Shown piece after piece: positions 45,696 to 54,370 of a stretch of DNA of 64,000 bases (positions within the stretch are counted from its first letter, which is position 1; each line of letters begins with the position of its first letter). The notes under the pieces are model-generated. The model saw only the letters and a list, made by a program, of their open reading frames with translations. It searched no databases and had not been told where the DNA came from. Made by a program: the position numbers and the translations under genes. Origin of the DNA: an uncultured delta proteobacterium (GTDB lineage Bacteria > Myxococcota_A > Polyangia > Polyangiales > Houyiibacteriaceae); NCBI GenBank assembly GCA_963699755.1, contig CAVOVB010000005.1, positions 1-64,000 of the forward strand. Direction: 5' to 3'.

Positions 45696-46721
45696 ATGCA
45701 ACTAGGAATGATCGGCCTCGGCCGGATGGGGGCCAACATGGTGCGTCGCCTGTTGAAGGGCGGCCACGAATGCGTGGCGTACGACGTCTCGGCAGAGGCG
45801 GTTGCCGAGTTGGTCAGCGAGAAGGCCGTCGGCGCTGCCTCCCTGGCGGAGCTCACGAAGAAGCTCACGAAGCCGCGCGCGGTCTGGCTGATGGTCCCGG
45901 CCGGCGTGGTCGACGCGACGATCGCCGATCTGGTTCCTCATCTGGATCGAGGCGATATCATCATCGACGGTGGCAACAGCTACTACATCGATGATATCCG
46001 CCGGGCGAAAGAGCTCGGGTCGCAAGGCATTCACTACGTCGATGTCGGCACCAGCGGTGGCGTCTGGGGGCTCGAGCGGGGTTATTGCATGATGATCGGC
46101 GGCGAAGCGAAAACGGTGGAGCACTTGGATCCCATCTTCGTCACCCTGGCTCCGGGACGAGGTGACATCCCGCGTACCCCGGGACGAGAACAGGCAACGG
46201 GTACGAGCGAGAAAGGCTACTTGCACTGCGGTCCGAGCGGCGCCGGTCATTTCGTCAAGATGGTCCACAACGGGATCGAGTATGGCGTGATGGCTGCATA
46301 CGCCGAGGGGATGGCGGTCTTGAAAGCGGCCAACATCGGGAAGAAGACCGGCGCCGTCGACGCCGAGACCACTCCCCTCCGAGACCCGGAGCACTACCAA
46401 TACGACTTCGATCTGCCGGACATCGCCGAGCTCTGGCGGCGCGGCAGCGTCATCGCGTCATGGCTCCTCGACCTTTCCGCAGCCGCGCTGCTCGAGGATC
46501 CCGCGCTCTCGGCCTTCGAAGGACGCGTTTCGGACTCCGGCGAAGGACGTTGGACGATCAAAGCGGCTATCGACGAGGCGGTGCCTGCCCACGTGCTGTC
46601 CTCGGCCCTCTACGAGCGCTTCAGCTCCCGGGGCCAGGCGGACTTTGCCGACAAGCTGCTTTCGGCGATGCGCCACCAGTTCGGTGGGCATGTCGAAAAG
46701 CTCGCGAAACAACCAGGATGA
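45696..46721 (+). CDS. gnd: 6-phosphogluconate dehydrogenase (short, decarboxylating type)
   Basis: [38 protein letters not shown]. Confidence 0.93.
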
Positions 46722-47302
46722 CCAGGGACGAGCTCGATCAGCTTTCGATCAACACGATCCGAACGCTCTCGATCGATGCCGTCCAGCAGGCGCAGTCCGG
46801 ACATCCCGGCACGCCCATGGCGCTCGCGCCTCTGCTTTACGCGATCTGGAATCGAGTCCTGCGCTTCGATCCGCAGGACCCGATCTGGCCCGACCGGGAC
46901 CGCTTCGTGCTCTCGAACGGCCACGCCTCGATGCTGCTCTGGTCGGTGCTGTATCTATCGAAGACTCGAGCGGTGAACGCCGACTACGAGCGCCTCGGGC
47001 GGCCCTCGGTGACGCTGGATGACATTCGCCATTTCCGACAGCTCGGCAGCAAGTCGCCCGGACATCCCGAGTATCACTGGGTCTCCGGGGTGGAGACCAC
47101 GACCGGTCCGCTGGGTCAGGGGATCGCGACGAGCGTCGGCATGGCGATCGCGCGAACCTGGTTGGCCAGCCGCTACAATCGGCCGGGCTTCGAGATCTTC
47201 GACTACGACATCTATGCCGTCTGCGGCGACGGATGCCTGATGGAGGGCGTGGGCTCGGAGGCCGCCTCGCTTGCAGGTCACCTCGAGCTCGAGAGCCTGT
47301 GA
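46718..47302 (+). pseudogene. tkt: Transketolase, N-terminal ~194 codons only
   Basis: [31 protein letters not shown]; stops at a deletion junction. Confidence 0.9.
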
Positions 47303-47305
47303 CCG

Positions 47306-47461
47306 AACGATGTGCTCATGTTCGAGCGATCGGGCTTTCGCATCGCCATGGGCAATACCTCCGACGAGGTGAAATCGCGAGCCACCGCGACAACCGATTC
47401 CTACAACGACGAGGGCTTTGCAAAGGCGATGGAGCGCTTCATTCTGGGCGCAGAGAGTTGA
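47306..47461 (+). pseudogene. C-terminal remnant of a Cof-type HAD-IIB hydrolase
   Basis: Own translation: NDVLMFERSGFRIAMGNTSDEVKSRATATTDSYNDEGFAKAMERFI (Cof motif IV). Confidence 0.8.
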
Positions 47462-47469
47462 GGCGATCC

Positions 47470-48189
47470 ATGGACGGAAAGGTCGAGATACTCGAAGATC
47501 CACTGGCGCTCGCGCGGCACGTCGCCGAATGGTTGACGGCCACAGCGCTCGCGTCGAAGGGCCCATTTCGGGTGGCGCTCTCGGGTGGCTCGACACCCAA
47601 GCTGCTGTACGAGGTTCTTGCGTCCGATGAGCTCCGGACGCGTTTCCCATGGCAGCGAGTCCTCTGGTACTGGGGCGATGAACGGTTCGTGCCGCACGAC
47701 CATCCTGACAGCAACTACAGGATGGCGCGCGAGTCGATGCTCGACAAGGCGCCGGTGCCGCCTGAAAACGTCTTCCCGGTTCGGGTCGATGGCAGCCCCG
47801 AGGAGGCCGCGATGCGCTACGAGCGAACCCTGCAACAAGCGTATGGAGGAGCGGCGCTAGAGCCCATGAGGCCCCTTCTCGACATCAATCTGCTCGGGCT
47901 CGGGCCCGACGGCCATACCGCGTCGCTCATACCGGGTGAGCCGGTGTTGCAGGAGCGCAAGCGCTGGGTCGTCGCCGTGCCTCACGGCCGGCCCGAGGTC
48001 CGCATCACGATGACCTATCCAGTGCTCGAGAGCTGCCGGCACGCAGCCTTCATCGTGTCTGGAGAGGCAAAGGCCGCCATCGCCGCCGCCATTCTAGCAG
48101 GCGGAAGCCACGTTCCTGCCGCACGCATCAAACCGATCGGCGAGCTCATCTGGTTCCTCGATCGGGCGGCCGCGGGTCGAATCAGATGA
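47470..48189 (+). CDS. pgl: 6-phosphogluconolactonase
   Basis: ALSGGSTP, WGDERFVP, LGLGPDGHTASL, RITMT. Confidence 0.95.
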   Translation: MDGKVEILEDPLALARHVAEWLTATALASKGPFRVALSGGSTPKLLYEVLASDELRTRFPWQRVLWYWGDERFVPHDHPDSNYRMARESMLDKAPVPPENVFPVRVDGSPEEAAMRYERTLQQAYGGAALEPMRPLLDINLLGLGPDGHTASLIPGEPVLQERKRWVVAVPHGRPEVRITMTYPVLESCRHAAFIVSGEAKAAIAAAILAGGSHVPAARIKPIGELIWFLDRAAAGRIR

Positions 48190-48279
48190 AACCCATGCAG
48201 CCGGTTTCTTTCGCACCGAGGATTACGAGACCGCCATCGCGGCGATCCGCCGAAGTGCCGCTGCCGCCACGGCTGAGTC

Positions 48280-49200
48280 ATGAGCGAAGGGACATCTCGA
48301 TCCAACTCGGAACGTGACTCTCTCAAGCGCGCGGCTGCAGAAGCTGCTGTGGCACTGGTCGAGGATGGCATGGTGGTCGGCCTCGGCAGCGGCTCGACGG
48401 CGGCCTTTGCGCTGGAGGCTCTCGCCCAACGCCAACGCCAGGGCCTCCGTGTCATCGGGATTCCCACCTCCGAAGAGACGGCGGCTCGCGCGACGACAGC
48501 AGGCATTCCGCTCAGCTCTTTCGCCGAGCACCGGCAGATCGACCTCACCATCGACGGCGCCGACGAGGTCGAACGCGGGACGCTGAATTTGATCAAGGGA
48601 CTAGGCGGCGCTCGAAGCACTTGGTGCCAACGCGCGTCTGCGCCTTGCGGCATCGGGCGAGCCTTTTGTGACGGACAGCGGCAACCGGATTCTCGACTGC
48701 AGCTTTGGCGCGATTGCCGATCCGACGAGGCTCGAGGAGCGCATTGGGCGCGTCGTCGGAGTAGTCGAGAGCGGCCTCTTCATCGGTCGGGCGGATTCGG
48801 TTTTCGCGGCCGATGCAGCGCGCGTTCATCGCCTCGAGAGAGAGCGCGCGCACCCGGACGGCTCGCCCATATTGGTCGTCATGGGGGTGTCGGGATCGGG
48901 CAAGACGACCATCGCGAAGCAGCTGGCGGCGCGACTCGGCTGGCCCTTTGAGGAAGGCGATGCGCTTCATCCCGAGTCGAATGTCGCCAAGATGCATGCT
49001 GGGTTTCCCTTGACCGATGCCGACCGCCAACCCTGGCCCGAGGCCGTGGCCGCCTGGATCGATGGCCAACGTGCCAAGCATCGACCCGGAATCATTGCCT
49101 GCTCGGCTCTCAAGCGATCGTATCGCCAAGTCATCATCGGAAACCGGCCCGAGGTCCGGCTCGTCTATCTCCGTGGCAGCAGCGCCCTGATCGCGGACTT
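48280..49200 (+). pseudogene. rpiA: Ribose-5-phosphate isomerase A - gluconokinase fusion, internally deleted and 3'-truncated
   Basis: GLGSGST, IDGADEV, IKGLGGA, then a frameshifting deletion near 48610; VTDSGNRILD...GVVESGLF continues in frame into VMGVSGSGKTT, EGDALHP, ACSALKRSYR; the GntK C-terminus is missing. Confidence 0.85.
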
Positions 49201-49680
49201 GAGCACGCTTGACCTCCAAATGAGAGAGGGATACTTGGCCTCCGATGGCGCGATTCTACAAGAAGCGCGAAGAGAGCCGACTTCGCCAAGACCCAGCCGG
49301 TCACTTGGATCAATGTCGACGGCCTACACGATACGAACCAAATCAGAGAGATCGGAAGGATCTTCGATCTGCATCCCCTTCTCATGGAAGACATCTCGAA
49401 CACGGGGCAACGCCCAAAGATGGAGGAGCTCGACAGCGAGCTCCGCCGCGAGAAGACTTGCGCGAACCTTTCTCGTGACCTCGATCATCCCTATTCCCCG
49501 GAGCGGTTGATTTGGCACAGATACGGAAGCAAGAACCTCTTCTCAGAAGTTTGGAGCGATCGAACCTGCAAGCAGGACCTTCGGCACTTGGCGCAGAAGC
49601 CGTACCGAGCGCTGTCCATCCGAGGCCTGTCCGCGGTAAGGTCCCGCTGAGCAGATGGCTTCGGCCTGGGAGGGGCAGCG

Positions 49681-50286
49681 ATGCGTACGCGACATAGGAT
49701 CGAAATGGCAGCCATGGCCCTTGCGATGGCATTGCTCTTCAGCCCCGAGGGCGCGACAGCGCAGGCCGCTTCAACGCGGGAAGCGCCGCGGCTCTTTGCG
49801 GACATCAGCTCTAGCACCCGCGTCTACCCAAACGCGGACGCCGCGCTCACAGGGTTTGCTTTGGGGTCGATCTGGAGGCCATCGGAGAAATGCGTGCACC
49901 TTGCCGGCGAGCTCTTTGCCCGCTTTGGGCGCAAGGACGCAACGCCCGCCGATCTAAAAATGCGCACTGCCGGAGGAGCCATCGGTGCCCTCTGGGGCAC
50001 CGGAGACTGGGACCGCTGGTTTGGAGCCGGCGCGATGTTTGATCTCGGATGGGGCCGGGTGGGCCCGCGAGATGAGTTTATCTCGAGCGCCTACCTCCGC
50101 GCGCTCCTCTACTGGCGGCTGCGCGGAGAGTTCTGGCTGGGCCTGGACCTACGCGCGGGGTACGTCATTGCCCCCGTTACGGTTGGCGGGATTGGGATGA
50201 AGGGGCCGGTGCTCGGTCTTGGAATCGGGCTGTCCTGGGGCAAGGACGAAGATGAGTACGTGACAGAACCGAGTGCCAGCCGCTAG
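49681..50286 (+). CDS. Hypothetical exported beta-strand-rich (outer-membrane-like) protein
   Basis: Signal peptide ending AQA; alternating aromatic/Gly strands. Confidence 0.6.
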   Translation: MRTRHRIEMAAMALAMALLFSPEGATAQAASTREAPRLFADISSSTRVYPNADAALTGFALGSIWRPSEKCVHLAGELFARFGRKDATPADLKMRTAGGAIGALWGTGDWDRWFGAGAMFDLGWGRVGPRDEFISSAYLRALLYWRLRGEFWLGLDLRAGYVIAPVTVGGIGMKGPVLGLGIGLSWGKDEDEYVTEPSASR

Positions 50287-50362: not shown

Positions 50363-51007
50363 ATGCTGCAGCGAACACGCCGCGCGGTCTTGGCCGCCTC
50401 GATCCTGGCTTCGATCATCCTGACGGTGTGGGTGGGCGTGAGCCTCGCTCGCTTGGTGACCGCGGGATGGTGGCTCGCCGTGCTGATCGCCCTCCCCCTC
50501 GGCGTCGCGGCGGTCGATTTACTGAGCGGAGTCGTTCACTGGGCCTGCGACCGCTTCGGAGACGCGTCCACACCGCTCGTCGGCTCGCTCCTCATCCGTG
50601 CATTCCGGGAGCACCACGTCGATCCAAGGCAGATGGTCGAGCACGACTGGATCGAGACGAACGGTGAGCCGTGCTTCTTCGCCGCCCTGTTCCTAGCAGC
50701 CTTGGCCTTCTTGGCGCCCAACGTTCAGTCCGAGCTCGGCGCGGCGGCAGTGACCCTCGTTTGGACGATGGCCGCCGTCGGGTCCTGGGCCAATCAGGTT
50801 CACAAATGGGCACACATGTCGGAGCCTCCCAGGCTCGCGCGGTTTCTTCAGCGCGTGGGCCTCGCTTTGCGCCCGGACGAGCATGCGTGCCATCATCAGG
50901 CAGCCCACGATTCGGGCTACTGCATCAGCACCGGTTGGATGAATCCGCTCTTGGACCGCACCGGACTTTGGTCTTGGCTCGAACGCTCGCTTAGGAGAAC
51001 GGCTTGA
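50363..51007 (+). CDS. carF: CarF/TMEM189-family lipid desaturase (plasmanylethanolamine desaturase-like)
   Basis: His boxes HWACD, FREHH, HKWAH, HACHH, plus YCISTGWMN; four TM segments. Confidence 0.85.
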   Translation: MLQRTRRAVLAASILASIILTVWVGVSLARLVTAGWWLAVLIALPLGVAAVDLLSGVVHWACDRFGDASTPLVGSLLIRAFREHHVDPRQMVEHDWIETNGEPCFFAALFLAALAFLAPNVQSELGAAAVTLVWTMAAVGSWANQVHKWAHMSEPPRLARFLQRVGLALRPDEHACHHQAAHDSGYCISTGWMNPLLDRTGLWSWLERSLRRTA

Positions 51008-51525
51008 AACTGACAGATTGGCTGACCGAACACATCACCGACGACGCGCGGGCCTTGGGCTGGTTCGATAGCCCCGAGGCGGACGATCGCATCGCGCGTT
51101 GCTACAAAGAACTGCTGAACGGCTACGAGATCGACCCGTCGACGATTTTAAAAACGACGCGGATGGTCGGCCCGGACGAGCCGAGGGGCGCAGTGGAGGT
51201 CCGAGACATCGCGTTCTACTCGATTTGCGCCCACCACTTCCTCCCGTTCTTTGGGCACCTCAGCATTCGCTATGTCCCTGGGGATCGCATTCTTGGGCTC
51301 GGTAAGCTGCCCCGCCTGGTCGACGCGTACGCGCGCCGATTCCAGATTCAGGAAGACCTCGTCCGGGACATCGCTCGAGAGATGATGCAGTCGGGCCACG
51401 CGCGAGGTGTTCTCGTGCAATCGGAAGCACGGCACCTCTGCATGCTGAGTCGAGGCCCCCAAAGTGCTGCCTCGGTCACGCGCACCGAGATCGCACTTGG
51501 ATGTCTCAGCGACCAGGGTGGATGA
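51004..51525 (+). CDS. folE: GTP cyclohydrolase I (short form)
   Basis: CAHHFLPFFG, GLGKLPR, QIQE, HLCM zinc ligands; TTGA overlap with carF. Confidence 0.88.
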   Translation: MKLTDWLTEHITDDARALGWFDSPEADDRIARCYKELLNGYEIDPSTILKTTRMVGPDEPRGAVEVRDIAFYSICAHHFLPFFGHLSIRYVPGDRILGLGKLPRLVDAYARRFQIQEDLVRDIAREMMQSGHARGVLVQSEARHLCMLSRGPQSAASVTRTEIALGCLSDQGG

Positions 51526-52427
51526 GGCTCACCGCGATTGCGTTGGGAGCCTGGTGCCTCCTGGGTTGTAGCCGCGGCGACCTGGGTTCAGCGCCGGATA
51601 GCCAGTCCGCCAAGGTTGCAGCGGCTCCCGCCGAACACCCAAGCGCGCGCTCGCTTGATTTTCTGATCGAGTCGAAGCCGGGGAAGTCGCTGACGGTCGA
51701 AGAGATGTCGAAGAACATCGAGCCTGTTCGCGTCGAGGTATTCGAGCCCTACGAGCACACGAACGTGGTGTTCACTGCGCTCCCGCTCGAGCGAGTGCTC
51801 GACGAAGCGTACGGGCCGTCTTGGCGAACGCACGAAGCAATTCTGTTCAGCTGTCGCGACGGCTACGAGCCCACGATTCCCGTGCGACGCGTCTTGGATC
51901 ACCGGGCGTTTCTGGCGATCGACCGACCAGGCGACGCCGGTTTCACGATCCTGAAGTACGAAGAGGGCGCGAAACGGCGGATCGCGCTCAGCCCTTTCTA
52001 TGTCATCTGGGAAAACCTGGGCAATGCCCGAGTCCGCACCGAGGGCGACTACGGCTGGCCCTACCAGGTCGTTCGAATCGACCTCGTGTCATTCCGATCG
52101 CGGTTCCGAGAGATGGCGCCTCCAGAGAATTCGAATGCAACCGTTCTGGCGGGGTTCGACGCCTTCATCGCGCACTGCTCCAAGTGTCACATGATCAACG
52201 GCCACGGGGGCGCGATCGGACCGGAGCTCAACTATCCGGCCAATCCTACCGAATACATGACCGACGCGTGGCTGCGGAAGTGGATCGACGATCCGACGCT
52301 CATGCGCGTGGCTCCACGAATGCCCCCACTGAACCCGGATTTGCCCAGCCGGGCGCGAATCATCGACGAGATCGTCGCCTATCTCGCTGCGATGGCATCC
52401 CACAAAGTCGAGCGCGGCGCGCCGTGA
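51522..52427 (+). CDS. Cytochrome c lipoprotein with N-terminal molybdopterin-oxidoreductase-like domain
   Basis: Lipobox LLGC; CSKCH haem motif, GPELN, distal Met in RMPP; N-terminal CRDGY...PFYVIW...WPYQV; ATGA overlap with folE. Confidence 0.8.
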   Translation: MRLTAIALGAWCLLGCSRGDLGSAPDSQSAKVAAAPAEHPSARSLDFLIESKPGKSLTVEEMSKNIEPVRVEVFEPYEHTNVVFTALPLERVLDEAYGPSWRTHEAILFSCRDGYEPTIPVRRVLDHRAFLAIDRPGDAGFTILKYEEGAKRRIALSPFYVIWENLGNARVRTEGDYGWPYQVVRIDLVSFRSRFREMAPPENSNATVLAGFDAFIAHCSKCHMINGHGGAIGPELNYPANPTEYMTDAWLRKWIDDPTLMRVAPRMPPLNPDLPSRARIIDEIVAYLAAMASHKVERGAP

Positions 52428-53095
52428 GCTACGCCGAGTTTTACGATTCGTTCATTCAGCACCCGCTGCTCCTCTGGGCGGCTGCGATCCTCGGGCTGTT
52501 GTTGGCGCTGTCCGGCCCCGTCCCGTCCGTCACGGTGCGTAGGTATTGCATCGCGCTCACGAGTCTTTCGCTTCTCGATGCCTGGCTGACCACCGACGAT
52601 GTTCCTGGTATCGGTCCGCTGACCGGCGCAGCAGCCTGGTTGATGCCGCTGGCCTTCGTTCTCATCGGTGACTTTCGGTTCTTCCTCTTCATCGAGAGCG
52701 CGAAACCAGACGGGACCCTTGCAGCGAGCGCGGGTGCGTGGATGCGAGCGTCTGCTTGGACGCTGCTCGTTCCATTGGCGTCACAGCTTGCCGTTTTCGA
52801 GTTGGGTTCGAACGAGCCTCGCATCCTCTTCTTCGTCTACGAGGCGCTCTTCGTCTTGCTGTCCATCGGCTTGACGCAGGTGTATCTGCCTCGCCGCAGC
52901 CGCGCACTCCTATGGACGCGGCGGGTGACTAGGTTCGTCATCGTCTACTATGCGCTCTGGGGCGCAGCCGACGCGATCATCCTCACGACTGGCGCCGATG
53001 CTGGCTTCCTCCTGCGCCTGCTCCCGAATGTTCTCTACTACGGAGGCCTCGTTCCCGCGATCGCTTGGGCTGCGCCCCGCGCACCTGACGTTTGA
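52424..53095 (+). CDS. Hypothetical polytopic membrane protein
   Basis: ~7 hydrophobic segments; GTGA overlap with the cytochrome gene. Confidence 0.7.
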   Translation: MSYAEFYDSFIQHPLLLWAAAILGLLLALSGPVPSVTVRRYCIALTSLSLLDAWLTTDDVPGIGPLTGAAAWLMPLAFVLIGDFRFFLFIESAKPDGTLAASAGAWMRASAWTLLVPLASQLAVFELGSNEPRILFFVYEALFVLLSIGLTQVYLPRRSRALLWTRRVTRFVIVYYALWGAADAIILTTGADAGFLLRLLPNVLYYGGLVPAIAWAAPRAPDV

Positions 53096-53221: not shown

Positions 53222-54166
53222 TCAGCCGCTCTGGTCCGAGACGAGTGCGGAGGCTGCGATCTGGAAGTCCTCGATCGAGCTGATGAACGTGGCTCTGGGG
53301 ATGCGGGAGGTGAGTGGGTGGTCAGGTGGGCAACCGATCCAAACGGGAACCTTCGGCGACACCGTGTTTACCAGCCGTTCGACCTGCATCATCTCGTCCT
53401 CGCTCATGTGGCGAACCACCGACAAGACCAGGATGTCGGCGTTGCTGCGCGCAACGCTCCAGATGATTTCTTCGGTCGGAAGATCCGGCCCTAGGTAGAG
53501 CACGTCGAATCCGGCCTCCTTGGCAAGGACCGAGCCTGCAAGAATGCCAAACTCGTGGAGCTGGCCGGCTGGGGTCGTGAACAAGAGGCGTCGTGCCCCG
53601 GGGGTCGTAGGAATCTGCTCGAGACGGCTAGTCATCAGGCTCTTCAGCTGCGCCCTCACCAAATGCTCGGGCGCAGTGCCCAGCGTCCCTTCGCTCCAAC
53701 GGCGACCCACTTCCCACATGATCGGGATGGCCACAGCTATGATGAGTTGAAGATTGCCGAGATCTTCGCTCATTGCCTTGAGCTTCTGGAAGGCTTCTCC
53801 GATCTCCAGGTTTTCGATGGCGTCTAGATAGGCCTGCTGTTCCGCTGACAACGGCGGCTGAGTCGGTCGTGGGGGCCGAATCGGCGGCTTCTGGCTCTGG
53901 CGCATCGCAGTGAGCTCATTCGTCGATAGCCCGGCAAGCGTCTGCAGCGCATAGCCGCGCTCCCGCAGCTCCTTGAGACAGATCAGTCGAGTCACATCAT
54001 CCTCGCTGAACTGCCGGGTGCCCCCGTTGCTCCTGGCAGGCTCGATGGCTCGATATCGTCGCTCCCAGGCCCGGATGGTGTCCGGATTCAGGCCTGTCAG
54101 GGCGACGACCGCCCGGATGGGCAGCATTCCGGGTTTGGGGGGCTCGGTCACGTCAAACCTGAACAT
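53222..54166 (-). CDS. MerR-family regulator with cobalamin-binding domain (CarH/CarA/LitR-like)
   Basis: TIRAWERRY HTH; W-x9-EH (WSEGTLGTAPEH); B12 His motif QLHEFG; YLGPDLP. Confidence 0.88.
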   Translation of the reverse strand: MFRFDVTEPPKPGMLPIRAVVALTGLNPDTIRAWERRYRAIEPARSNGGTRQFSEDDVTRLICLKELRERGYALQTLAGLSTNELTAMRQSQKPPIRPPRPTQPPLSAEQQAYLDAIENLEIGEAFQKLKAMSEDLGNLQLIIAVAIPIMWEVGRRWSEGTLGTAPEHLVRAQLKSLMTSRLEQIPTTPGARRLLFTTPAGQLHEFGILAGSVLAKEAGFDVLYLGPDLPTEEIIWSVARSNADILVLSVVRHMSEDEMMQVERLVNTVSPKVPVWIGCPPDHPLTSRIPRATFISSIEDFQIAASALVSDQSG

Positions 54167-54370
54167 GTATAGAAAATCGTGAAGTCGCAACCCTTGTCGA
54201 TTGCACCAGATCGGGTCAGTTGGCGGATTCAGCCTGCAAATTAGTCAGATCGCTTCCTTGATGGCCCGGGCCACGAAAGCATGAATCTGGACCGTATCCG
54301 GCCATGACTTGGACTTCTCGCAGAGAAATGGGAACGTCCCGCTCGCCCGGGGATTCGCCAGTCGCCTGCC

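Follow-up and report, generated by a model that had tools for sequence, protein, structure and literature searches.

A conserved Myxococcota cassette that joins an AzaE-type GTP cyclohydrolase homologue to a PruR-like cytochrome c: a likely redox pathway at the cell envelope

What do a lipid desaturase, a GTP cyclohydrolase homologue, a cytochrome c and a membrane protein of no named family do together? The question is raised by four genes on the plus strand of the window, by which we mean the whole 64,000-nucleotide stretch analysed here (positions 1 to 64,000 of contig CAVOVB010000005.1, assembly GCA_963699755.1, from an uncultured delta proteobacterium). Gene 1 (50363..51007; P0001, 214 aa) encodes a putative CarF/PEDS1-family di-iron lipid desaturase (PF10520, E 5.6e-49), gene 2 (51004..51525; P0002, 173 aa) an AzaE-clade homologue of GTP cyclohydrolase I (PF01227, E 7e-45), gene 3 (51522..52427; P0003, 301 aa) a predicted periplasmic lipoprotein in which a PruR-like domain is fused to a cytochrome c, and gene 4 (52424..53095; P0004, 223 aa) a seven-helix membrane protein. 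The open reading frames and the sequence confirm that all four genes are intact and that each overlaps the next by 4 nt (TTGA, ATGA and GTGA), as a previous reading of the letters alone (the sequence-only reading) had described, and the TTG start of gene 2 has an AGGAGA ribosome-binding site that lies within the desaturase gene (50993..50998, +). We propose that a reduced pyrimidine resembling a pterin, most likely 2,5,6-triamino-4-pyrimidinone, is made by the core of this cassette and would be bound and oxidised by the periplasmic cytochrome, with the desaturase as a partner. We give this proposal a probability of roughly 0.4.

The grouping is conserved, as had been supposed, and is no accident. 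All four genes occur in the same order in 10 of the 12 GTDB loci retrieved by the cytochrome, and the remaining two contigs start inside the cytochrome gene; the relatives that bear names are metagenome-assembled genomes of Polyangiales, Myxococcales and Deltaproteobacteria, on which the phylum name Myxococcota used here is based. Among metagenome loci (the best 80 of the 281 matched by alignment to gene 2), the cytochrome lies downstream of gene 2 in 57 of the 57 loci with at least 700 bases downstream, gene 4 is present in 38 of the 39 with at least 1700 bases downstream of gene 2, and the desaturase lies upstream of gene 2 in 49 of the 60 with at least 700 bases upstream. A sample of 301 Myxococcota genomes was also searched; related genomes in it are not independent of one another, and each profile search scores only a handful of candidates in any one genome. 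Gene 4 was detected in 56 genomes from 33 of 208 genera, and a member of the gene 2 subfamily (E<=1e-60) in 23, in every one of which it lies within 6 kb of gene 4. Wide regions were taken for 40 of the 56 gene 4 genomes, and a cytochrome is near gene 4 in 35 of these. Where the cassette is split, the cytochrome was located away from gene 4 in all five genomes tested, and gene 4 still adjoins the desaturase in all five; a short-chain dehydrogenase/reductase-type oxidoreductase is near the displaced cytochrome in three of them (L124, L125 and L127), all of one genus. Gene 4 and the cytochrome also occur as a single chain, in that order, in 3 of the 150 gene 4 representatives listed and at locus L053. 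At L050:4949-6514 (+) a 522-codon frame reads cytochrome and then seven-helix protein, which would be either a fusion in the reverse order or a lost stop codon.

The desaturase is less constant. In the 56 genomes with gene 4 it is linked in 27 and lies elsewhere in 19, among them G203, where the contig breaks next to gene 2; searches of the other 10 found no desaturase. PF10520 matched 93 genomes of the sample, of which 6 with weak matches only were set aside, and the 87 left comprise 46 of the 56 genomes with gene 4 versus 41 of the 245 without it. In a desaturase tree with 17 linked and 20 unlinked members, the linked state needs at least four changes, and the linked desaturases are the outcome of repeated recruitment or repeated loss rather than a dedicated subfamily. 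Because of these linkage and occurrence counts and the changes in the tree, gene 4, the cytochrome and a slot for a GTP enzyme form the core, and the desaturase is a frequent, dispensable partner, not the centre of the module that the sequence-only reading had made of it.

We speak of a slot since it has two kinds of occupant. When the frames of 45 loci were clustered, one other gene was recurrent, for a GlmS-like double-SIS protein, and only where gene 2 is absent. A profile built from 13 of the loci matched 22 of the 301 genomes, adjoining gene 4 in every case, and none of the 23 with gene 2; gene 2 and the SIS protein are unrelated, either/or occupants of one position. The SIS proteins retain K232, E235 and H252-G-P, residues that we take to be K485, E488 and H504 of GlmS. 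Pfam SIS matched 1 of 10 of these proteins, below its cut-off, and the profile found no relevant solved relative. SIS proteins either rearrange amino-sugar phosphates (Amadori) or cleave them (FrlB). In 4 of the 40 wide loci the SIS protein is fused to a creatininase, and all four fusions adjoin a GTP cyclohydrolase II paralogue without the Tyr of the same genome's RibA. GTP cyclohydrolase II variants that have lost this Tyr halt at the formyl-pyrimidine, which ArfB-type creatininases deformylate; the literature search gave no supporting paper for the Tyr switch of SCO6655. The AzaE-type and SIS routes would therefore both lead from GTP through a ribosylamino-pyrimidine to either the free pyrimidine or dihydroneopterin phosphate. 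Replacement of the housekeeping folE by the SIS protein is unlikely, as all 22 SIS genomes have a PF01227 match, many of them divergent. The window's genome has, at G000:C3:751908-752363 (L120), a second, divergent match to GTP cyclohydrolase II in a 452-aa frame. In 5 of the 40 wide loci (L072, L073, L074, L076 and L084) the cytochrome has a CobW-type metal chaperone GTPase in its vicinity, and four of these five have neither the AzaE-type nor the SIS gene.

The likely product of gene 2 is indicated by its closest solved relative. The top PDB match is 9UJF, at 216 bits versus 121 for the next, with 97 of 163 residues identical (about 60%); the same entry is the lowest of the 15 PDB matches of the genome's housekeeping FolE (84 bits). 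9UJF is 197 aa long, and a 20-residue tag presumably explains the difference in length from AzaE of Streptomyces mobaraensis. AzaE has 177 aa, and the azaE primer encodes M-T-I-A-E-W-L, in agreement with residues 23-27 of 9UJF (PMC13749301). From the length and this N-terminal match we infer with high confidence that 9UJF is AzaE; the literature search found no paper naming 9UJF, and the entry is not among the fold-comparison matches listed for the gene 2 model, which is a T-fold. The main product of AzaE is 4-hydroxy-2,5,6-triaminopyrimidine (2,5,6-triamino-4-pyrimidinone), dihydroneopterin triphosphate (H2NTP) being a shunt product, with Vmax values of 10.43 and 0.79 µM/min, respectively, or about 13:1 (PMC13749301).

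In a tree of GTP cyclohydrolase I proteins, 13 cassette enzymes and the enzyme of a Streptomyces sp. 3211 plasmid form a clade with 100/100 support on a branch of 1.5, apart from 22 other FolE homologues; here the AzaE clade is represented by the Streptomyces sp. 3211 orthologue and not by AzaE itself, and the inner branches are weak. The Streptomyces sp. 3211 enzyme is 60% identical to gene 2, nests among the cassette enzymes and adjoins cupin and NUDIX genes. On that plasmid, p3211-2, the AzaE-like gene lies with cupin, VOC and NUDIX genes among insertion sequence elements (L209:3941-7063), and this is a mobile, partial azacitidine-like cluster. The Zn ligands C75, H77, H78 and C146 and the guanine-binding E117 are invariant in 26 of 26 gene 2 proteins (residue roles from PMC7109123), and in the alignment gene 2 also keeps K101, R150, the basic phosphate contacts and most GTP contacts. 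The Ser of the GLSK phosphate-binding motif is Gly100 in all 26, the C-terminus is short, and gene 2 scores below every FolE cut-off (126.3 against 181.6 for TIGR00063; 149.8 against 162 for NF006826). By tree, motifs and scores gene 2 belongs to the AzaE clade and is not a canonical FolE. By analogy with the clade's sole characterised member, it likely makes mainly triaminopyrimidinone, and not the H2NTP that the sequence-only reading had assigned to it.

That reading had also called the folE a dedicated one. It is indeed a spare copy, as is borne out by a second, canonical folE on another contig of the window's genome and by a second PF01227 gene in 21 of the 22 other AzaE-type genomes. Since non-cassette PF01227 genes are present in nearly all AzaE-type and SIS genomes, ordinary H2NTP is probably not what is missing. 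In many Myxococcota (L220, L221 and L223-L232) the only non-cassette PF01227 gene is of a divergent CPHH or CVHH form without GLSK, and these forms are two further FolE-like clades. Triaminopyrimidinone may replace tetrahydropterin, the hydroxylase cofactor, a use for which the literature search gave no supporting paper; phenylalanine hydroxylase was not found in the window's genome.

The candidate receiver of the product is P0003. Its signal carries LLGC with the lipobox Cys at position 16. The cytochrome c domain (52143..52391) has C219-x-x-C222-H223 and M267, and CxxCH, the Met and a PF00034 match are found in 34 of 34 gene 3 members, consistent with a class I cytochrome with His/Met ligation. 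In the Pfam scan gene 3 matched cytochrome c at E 2e-4 and, weakly, Oxidored_molyb at E 0.056. The N-terminal domain (residues 44-192; 51651..52097) appears to be a molybdenum-free SUOX-fold: its profile has only three PDB matches at E<=10, all of them PruR (7kom at 0.0039, 7rkb at 0.018 and 7kos at 0.037). Searches with the whole protein or with single sequences of gene 3 found no PruR; only the N-domain profile did. In that alignment P76-Y77 stands against the P-W of PruR at the site of the molybdenum-binding Cys, and D113-G114-Y115 against NDY. P76 is kept in 33 of 34 members, none has Cys at 77 and all have Tyr or Phe at 115. PruR stacks its pterin between Tyr104 and Trp160 (PMC11194511). 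Residue 181 of gene 3 is aromatic in all 34 (20 Tyr, 12 Trp and 2 Phe), though it is outside the aligned stretch and was placed by position only. The pterin-type cytochrome that had been named from the letters alone is thus supported, and gene 3 is likely a pterin-binding periplasmic cytochrome. A class I haem with His/Met ligands is normally a good oxidant for reduced pterins, and for this reason electrons likely flow from the ring to the haem.

Gene 4 has no Pfam or NCBIfam family. The P0004 model (pLDDT 95) has seven helices and resembles rhodopsin and G protein-coupled receptor (GPCR)-like bundles at Z 12.7, with a root mean square deviation of 4.3 Å over 193 residues. Foldseek gave no match at E<=0.001, and the Atlas matches were only to unnamed Myxococcota clusters; the family comprises 483 clusters. 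D52, G82, D83, R85, E140, Y176, W179, D183, R198, N202, Y205 and Y206 are invariant, and the buried Asp, Glu, Arg, Asn, Tyr and Trp among them suggest, in the model, the ligand cavity of a transporter or an enzyme. There is no conserved His for a haem (His13 is in 20 of 41), and the loops are short, with no output domain. The positive-inside charge pattern is consistent with an N-out/C-in topology, which fits the fusions of gene 4 to the cytochrome. Two identities were considered. A microbial rhodopsin is contradicted by the lack of any column with Lys in at least 10 of the 41 rows and by a helix 7 that reads R-x-x-P-N-x-L-Y-Y. The second candidate, a YhhN lysoplasmalogenase, of the YhhN/TMEM86 type, was prompted by GD, D and YY motifs but gained no support, as PF07947 matched 0 of 41 members and the hhalign probability was 0.2% (with a shallow YhhN profile of 14 sequences).

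Gene 1 keeps all the residues on which PEDS1 activity is known to depend, namely the eight His, the ninth His (mouse H131), Asp100 and Phe118, and in this sense is the CarF-like desaturase that it had been called. H59, H84, H85, H147, H151, H174, H177, H178, D63 and F81 are present in 17 of 17 aligned desaturases, and the ninth His, H94, in 15 of 17; the latter is reported as absent from plant FAD4 and from alphaproteobacterial homologues (PMC9131029, PMC8960569). Its score for NCBIfam CarF (NF045946) is 147.6 bits against an equivalog cut-off of 500, and it is the only PF10520 gene found in the window's genome. It is likely, judging by these residues, that the desaturase makes vinyl-ether lipids. 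The precursor route to ether lipids is only partly seen, since AGPS-like genes are present (the one checked matches 2uuu at E 1.5e-64) and no ElbD-sized or FAR-acyltransferase frame was found among the top PF07993 matches, three of the top four of which were inspected.

Together these parts suggest a sequence of events. Like AzaE, gene 2 would open the purine ring, release formate and mostly lose the ribose triphosphate. With the slot in its other form, a GTP cyclohydrolase II (the housekeeping enzyme, or the Tyr-less paralogue with a creatininase-type deformylase) would supply the ribosylamino-pyrimidine, and the SIS protein would remove or rearrange its sugar. The seven-helix protein, with its buried cavity of Asp, Glu, Arg and Tyr, may then export the compound or hold it beside the cytochrome, where the ring would stack between Tyr115 and the aromatic residue 181 and donate electrons to the His/Met haem. 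P0003 would act in this way as a molybdenum-free counterpart of sulfite:cytochrome c oxidoreductase, and in the periplasm would either cycle an antioxidant or sense its redox state. The desaturase would be connected through a shared role in oxygen or oxidant stress at the envelope rather than by a direct electron wire. A pyrimidine is ranked above a pterin because it is the product that AzaE prefers and because a further folE is retained in nearly all of these genomes. Several observations weigh against this proposal. The preference of gene 2 for one product may differ from that of AzaE, since AzaE also makes some H2NTP and 40% of the residues differ; by these profiles, 11 of the 56 core genomes have neither the AzaE-type nor the SIS gene; and in the SIS proteins E235, the counterpart of the isomerase base of GlmS, is kept, which favours an Amadori step to a true pterin. 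The match to PruR, with a best E of 0.004, is weak and falls short of the Trp160 region, Asn102 of PruR is Asp113 in 34 of 34 gene 3 members, and only 15 of 34 show the lipobox pattern. Among the neighbours in 45 loci, neither a pteridine reductase nor any other enzyme for recycling is a conserved part of the cassette. Furthermore, P0004 has a fold score of a size that helical bundles with no relationship can attain through their arrangement alone, and the role given to gene 4 is a guess.

Much of the same evidence can be read differently. The slot might make a true pterin, dihydroneopterin phosphate, by a full GTP cyclohydrolase I reaction or by GTP cyclohydrolase II with SIS as Amadori isomerase; the pterin would then be the redox cofactor, bound by cytochrome and seven-helix protein, of a periplasm-facing enzyme that possibly cleaves the vinyl-ether lipid of the desaturase. 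The Zn ligands and GTP contacts retained by gene 2, the K232/E235/H252-G-P of the SIS protein, the H2NTP formed by AzaE (PMC13749301) and the pterin binding of PruR (PMC11194511) would all suit such an enzyme. Lipid cleavage would also suit the invariant intramembrane acids of gene 4, its place beside the desaturase in the five tested genomes where the cytochrome has moved and the ability of cytochrome c to cleave plasmalogens (PMC9131029). Against this stand the housekeeping folE, which already supplies H2NTP in nearly all these genomes, the roughly 13:1 preference for the pyrimidine in the clade's one tested member (PMC13749301), the 10 of 56 core genomes in which PF10520 was not found and the failure of the gene 4 profile to match YhhN lysoplasmalogenases, and we regard this explanation as possible, if on the unlikely side. 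Alternatively, the product may be a scavenger of nitric oxide (NO) and nitrite or of dicarbonyls, or a first azanucleoside-type intermediate finished by unlinked genes, with the cytochrome regenerating or detoxifying it. GTP cyclohydrolase I-like PtnA and AzaE are the entry enzymes of 8-azaguanine and azacitidine, and ribosylamino-pyrimidines react with NO non-enzymatically to form triazoles (PMC7109123, PMC13749301), yet no cupin, NO synthase, phosphoribosyltransferase or major facilitator superfamily (MFS) gene is recurrent in the Myxococcota loci, and there is little to be expected of this idea.

In the model that follows from the sequence-only reading, electrons would go from a cytochrome carrying a pterin, by way of the membrane protein, to the desaturase, and this path would take the place of cytochrome b5. 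A desaturase of this kind does require an electron donor, all four genes are translationally coupled in the window, and the desaturase is both frequently upstream in metagenome loci (49 of 60) and enriched in core genomes (46 of 56 against 41 of 245, kin not being independent). Such a wire is doubtful because the CarF histidines face the cytoplasm (PMC9131029) while a c-type cytochrome lipoprotein is periplasmic, with the membrane predicted to lie between the two redox centres, and because no haem His is conserved in gene 4. Of the 56 core genomes, 19 have the desaturase unlinked and in 10 none was found; 41 other genomes have it without the core, and the linked desaturases do not form one clade (at least four changes). 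We think this path very unlikely. Scarcely better is our estimate of PruR-type signalling, in which the haem would read the periplasmic redox state via the bound ring and a seven-helix receptor would relay it to an unlinked transducer. The PruR homology of gene 3, the rhodopsin/GPCR-like bundle of gene 4 with its N-out charge pattern, the role of CarF in photo-oxidative signalling in M. xanthus (PMC9131029) and a CarH-like gene beside the cassette in the window's genome all speak for it. Against it, the loops of gene 4 are all short and an output domain is lacking; among the neighbours of 45 loci neither a kinase nor a cyclase nor a regulator recurs; and none of the 12 related loci has the CarH-like gene.

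Each soluble part of the cassette has a known relative, while the module as a whole is apparently undescribed. AzaE (PMC13749301; 9UJF by matching) shares with gene 2 not only about 60% identity but also the CAHH, GLGK and SRGP motifs and the short C-terminus; the Glu-His-Leu of 9UJF is Glu-Asp-Leu in gene 2. The aza cluster has a cupin, thiamine pyrophosphate (TPP) enzymes, a phosphoribosyltransferase and an MFS pump (PMC13749301), none of which recurs in the cassette loci, and the cassette's partners, cytochrome, seven-helix protein and desaturase, are unlike those of that cluster. The PruA/PruR/DcpA systems of Proteobacteria (PMC11194511, PMC13259868; 7kos, 7kom and 7rkb) resemble gene 3 in having an exported SUOX-fold without the molybdenum-binding Cys, a conserved Tyr at the ring-stacking position and a gene that adjoins a membrane partner. 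In PruR-DcpA and PruR-DTB, as described there, a stand-alone PruR of about 170 aa lies upstream of a cyclase or kinase with two transmembrane segments and a domain in the periplasm, an arrangement not found in the cassette. Here the domain is instead fused to a c-type haem, its partner has seven helices without a cyclic di-GMP or kinase domain, Asn102 is Asp, there is no pteridine reductase, and a dedicated AzaE-type or SIS protein is the candidate ligand source. CarF/TMEM189 (PEDS1; PMC9131029, PMC8960569) has the eight catalytic His, the ninth His and the essential Asp and Phe in common with gene 1, which is shorter, at 214 aa, and far under the CarF equivalog cut-off, and whose desaturase activity is putative.

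In the SorAB/SUOX family a pterin site of SUOX fold is wired, in the periplasm, to a class I cytochrome c. Compared with these enzymes gene 3 is without the molybdenum-binding Cys and the dimerisation domain, and the organic ring itself is the proposed redox partner. The literature search, made mostly without subscription papers, found no paper describing the cassette, in accord with the earlier suspicion that the combination was new. It gave no relevant paper joining GTP cyclohydrolase, CarF and plasmalogen among the matches listed, and no match for Myxococcota with pterin, cytochrome c and GTP cyclohydrolase. A term search finds neither 'cytochrome' nor 'Myxo' in a 2026 pterin review (PMC13259868), and desaturases of this kind may appear in the supplementary tables of bioRxiv 10.1101/2025.10.10.681575.

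The surroundings of the cassette are not conserved with it. Its CarH-like, PPOX and outer membrane protein (OMP)-like neighbours were rejected as cassette parts, being present in 0, 0 and 1 of the 12 related GTDB loci, respectively. The first is a CarH/LitR-like regulator with MerR and B12-binding domains (window 53222-54190, -), convergent with the cassette and one of four paralogues in the genome. The OMP-like gene (window 49681-50286, +) encodes a signal-peptide protein with no family matches, rich in aromatic residues and Gly like a small beta-barrel; elsewhere in the genome it has three paralogues of almost full length (67-84%) and one fragment. At 46460-49510 lies a pentose-phosphate cluster in which transketolase- and RpiA-like frames are truncated and run into their neighbours; these frames were the only sign seen of the deletion-scarred neighbours that the sequence-only reading had noted, and deletions and assembly indels are both possible. 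The genome is 9% contaminated by markers and has near-duplicate regions (L211/L212). Promoter and terminator scans of the cassette gave results at chance level. Two estuary RNA runs yielded short contigs, mostly less than 90% alike, over the cassette and its flanks, which are no proof of expression or co-transcription.

The cassette is likely a new redox pathway at the cell envelope. A wider and more doubtful proposal is that Myxococcota evolved the supply of free triaminopyrimidinone twice and through unrelated enzymes, by an AzaE-type GTP cyclohydrolase I or by GTP cyclohydrolase II with a deformylase and an SIS deglycase. The compound would be a redox cofactor able to diffuse, and in the periplasm it would be used to control vinyl-ether lipids by a SUOX-cytochrome c free of molybdenum and a new membrane protein of rhodopsin fold, either an enzyme or an exporter; Streptomyces would have taken its azacitidine entry enzyme from this system. 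If our reading of the cassette is true, a ring-opened purine known until now chiefly for being an antibiotic precursor and an unstable intermediate would have a primary redox role in the periplasm, and would have it in about one fifth of the sampled genomes (56 of 301) of a major soil and sediment phylum. It would also give the seven-helix family, with its several hundred clusters, a first function, carry PruR-type binding domains beyond signalling into haem-coupled redox chemistry and point to a possible source for the azacitidine entry enzyme.

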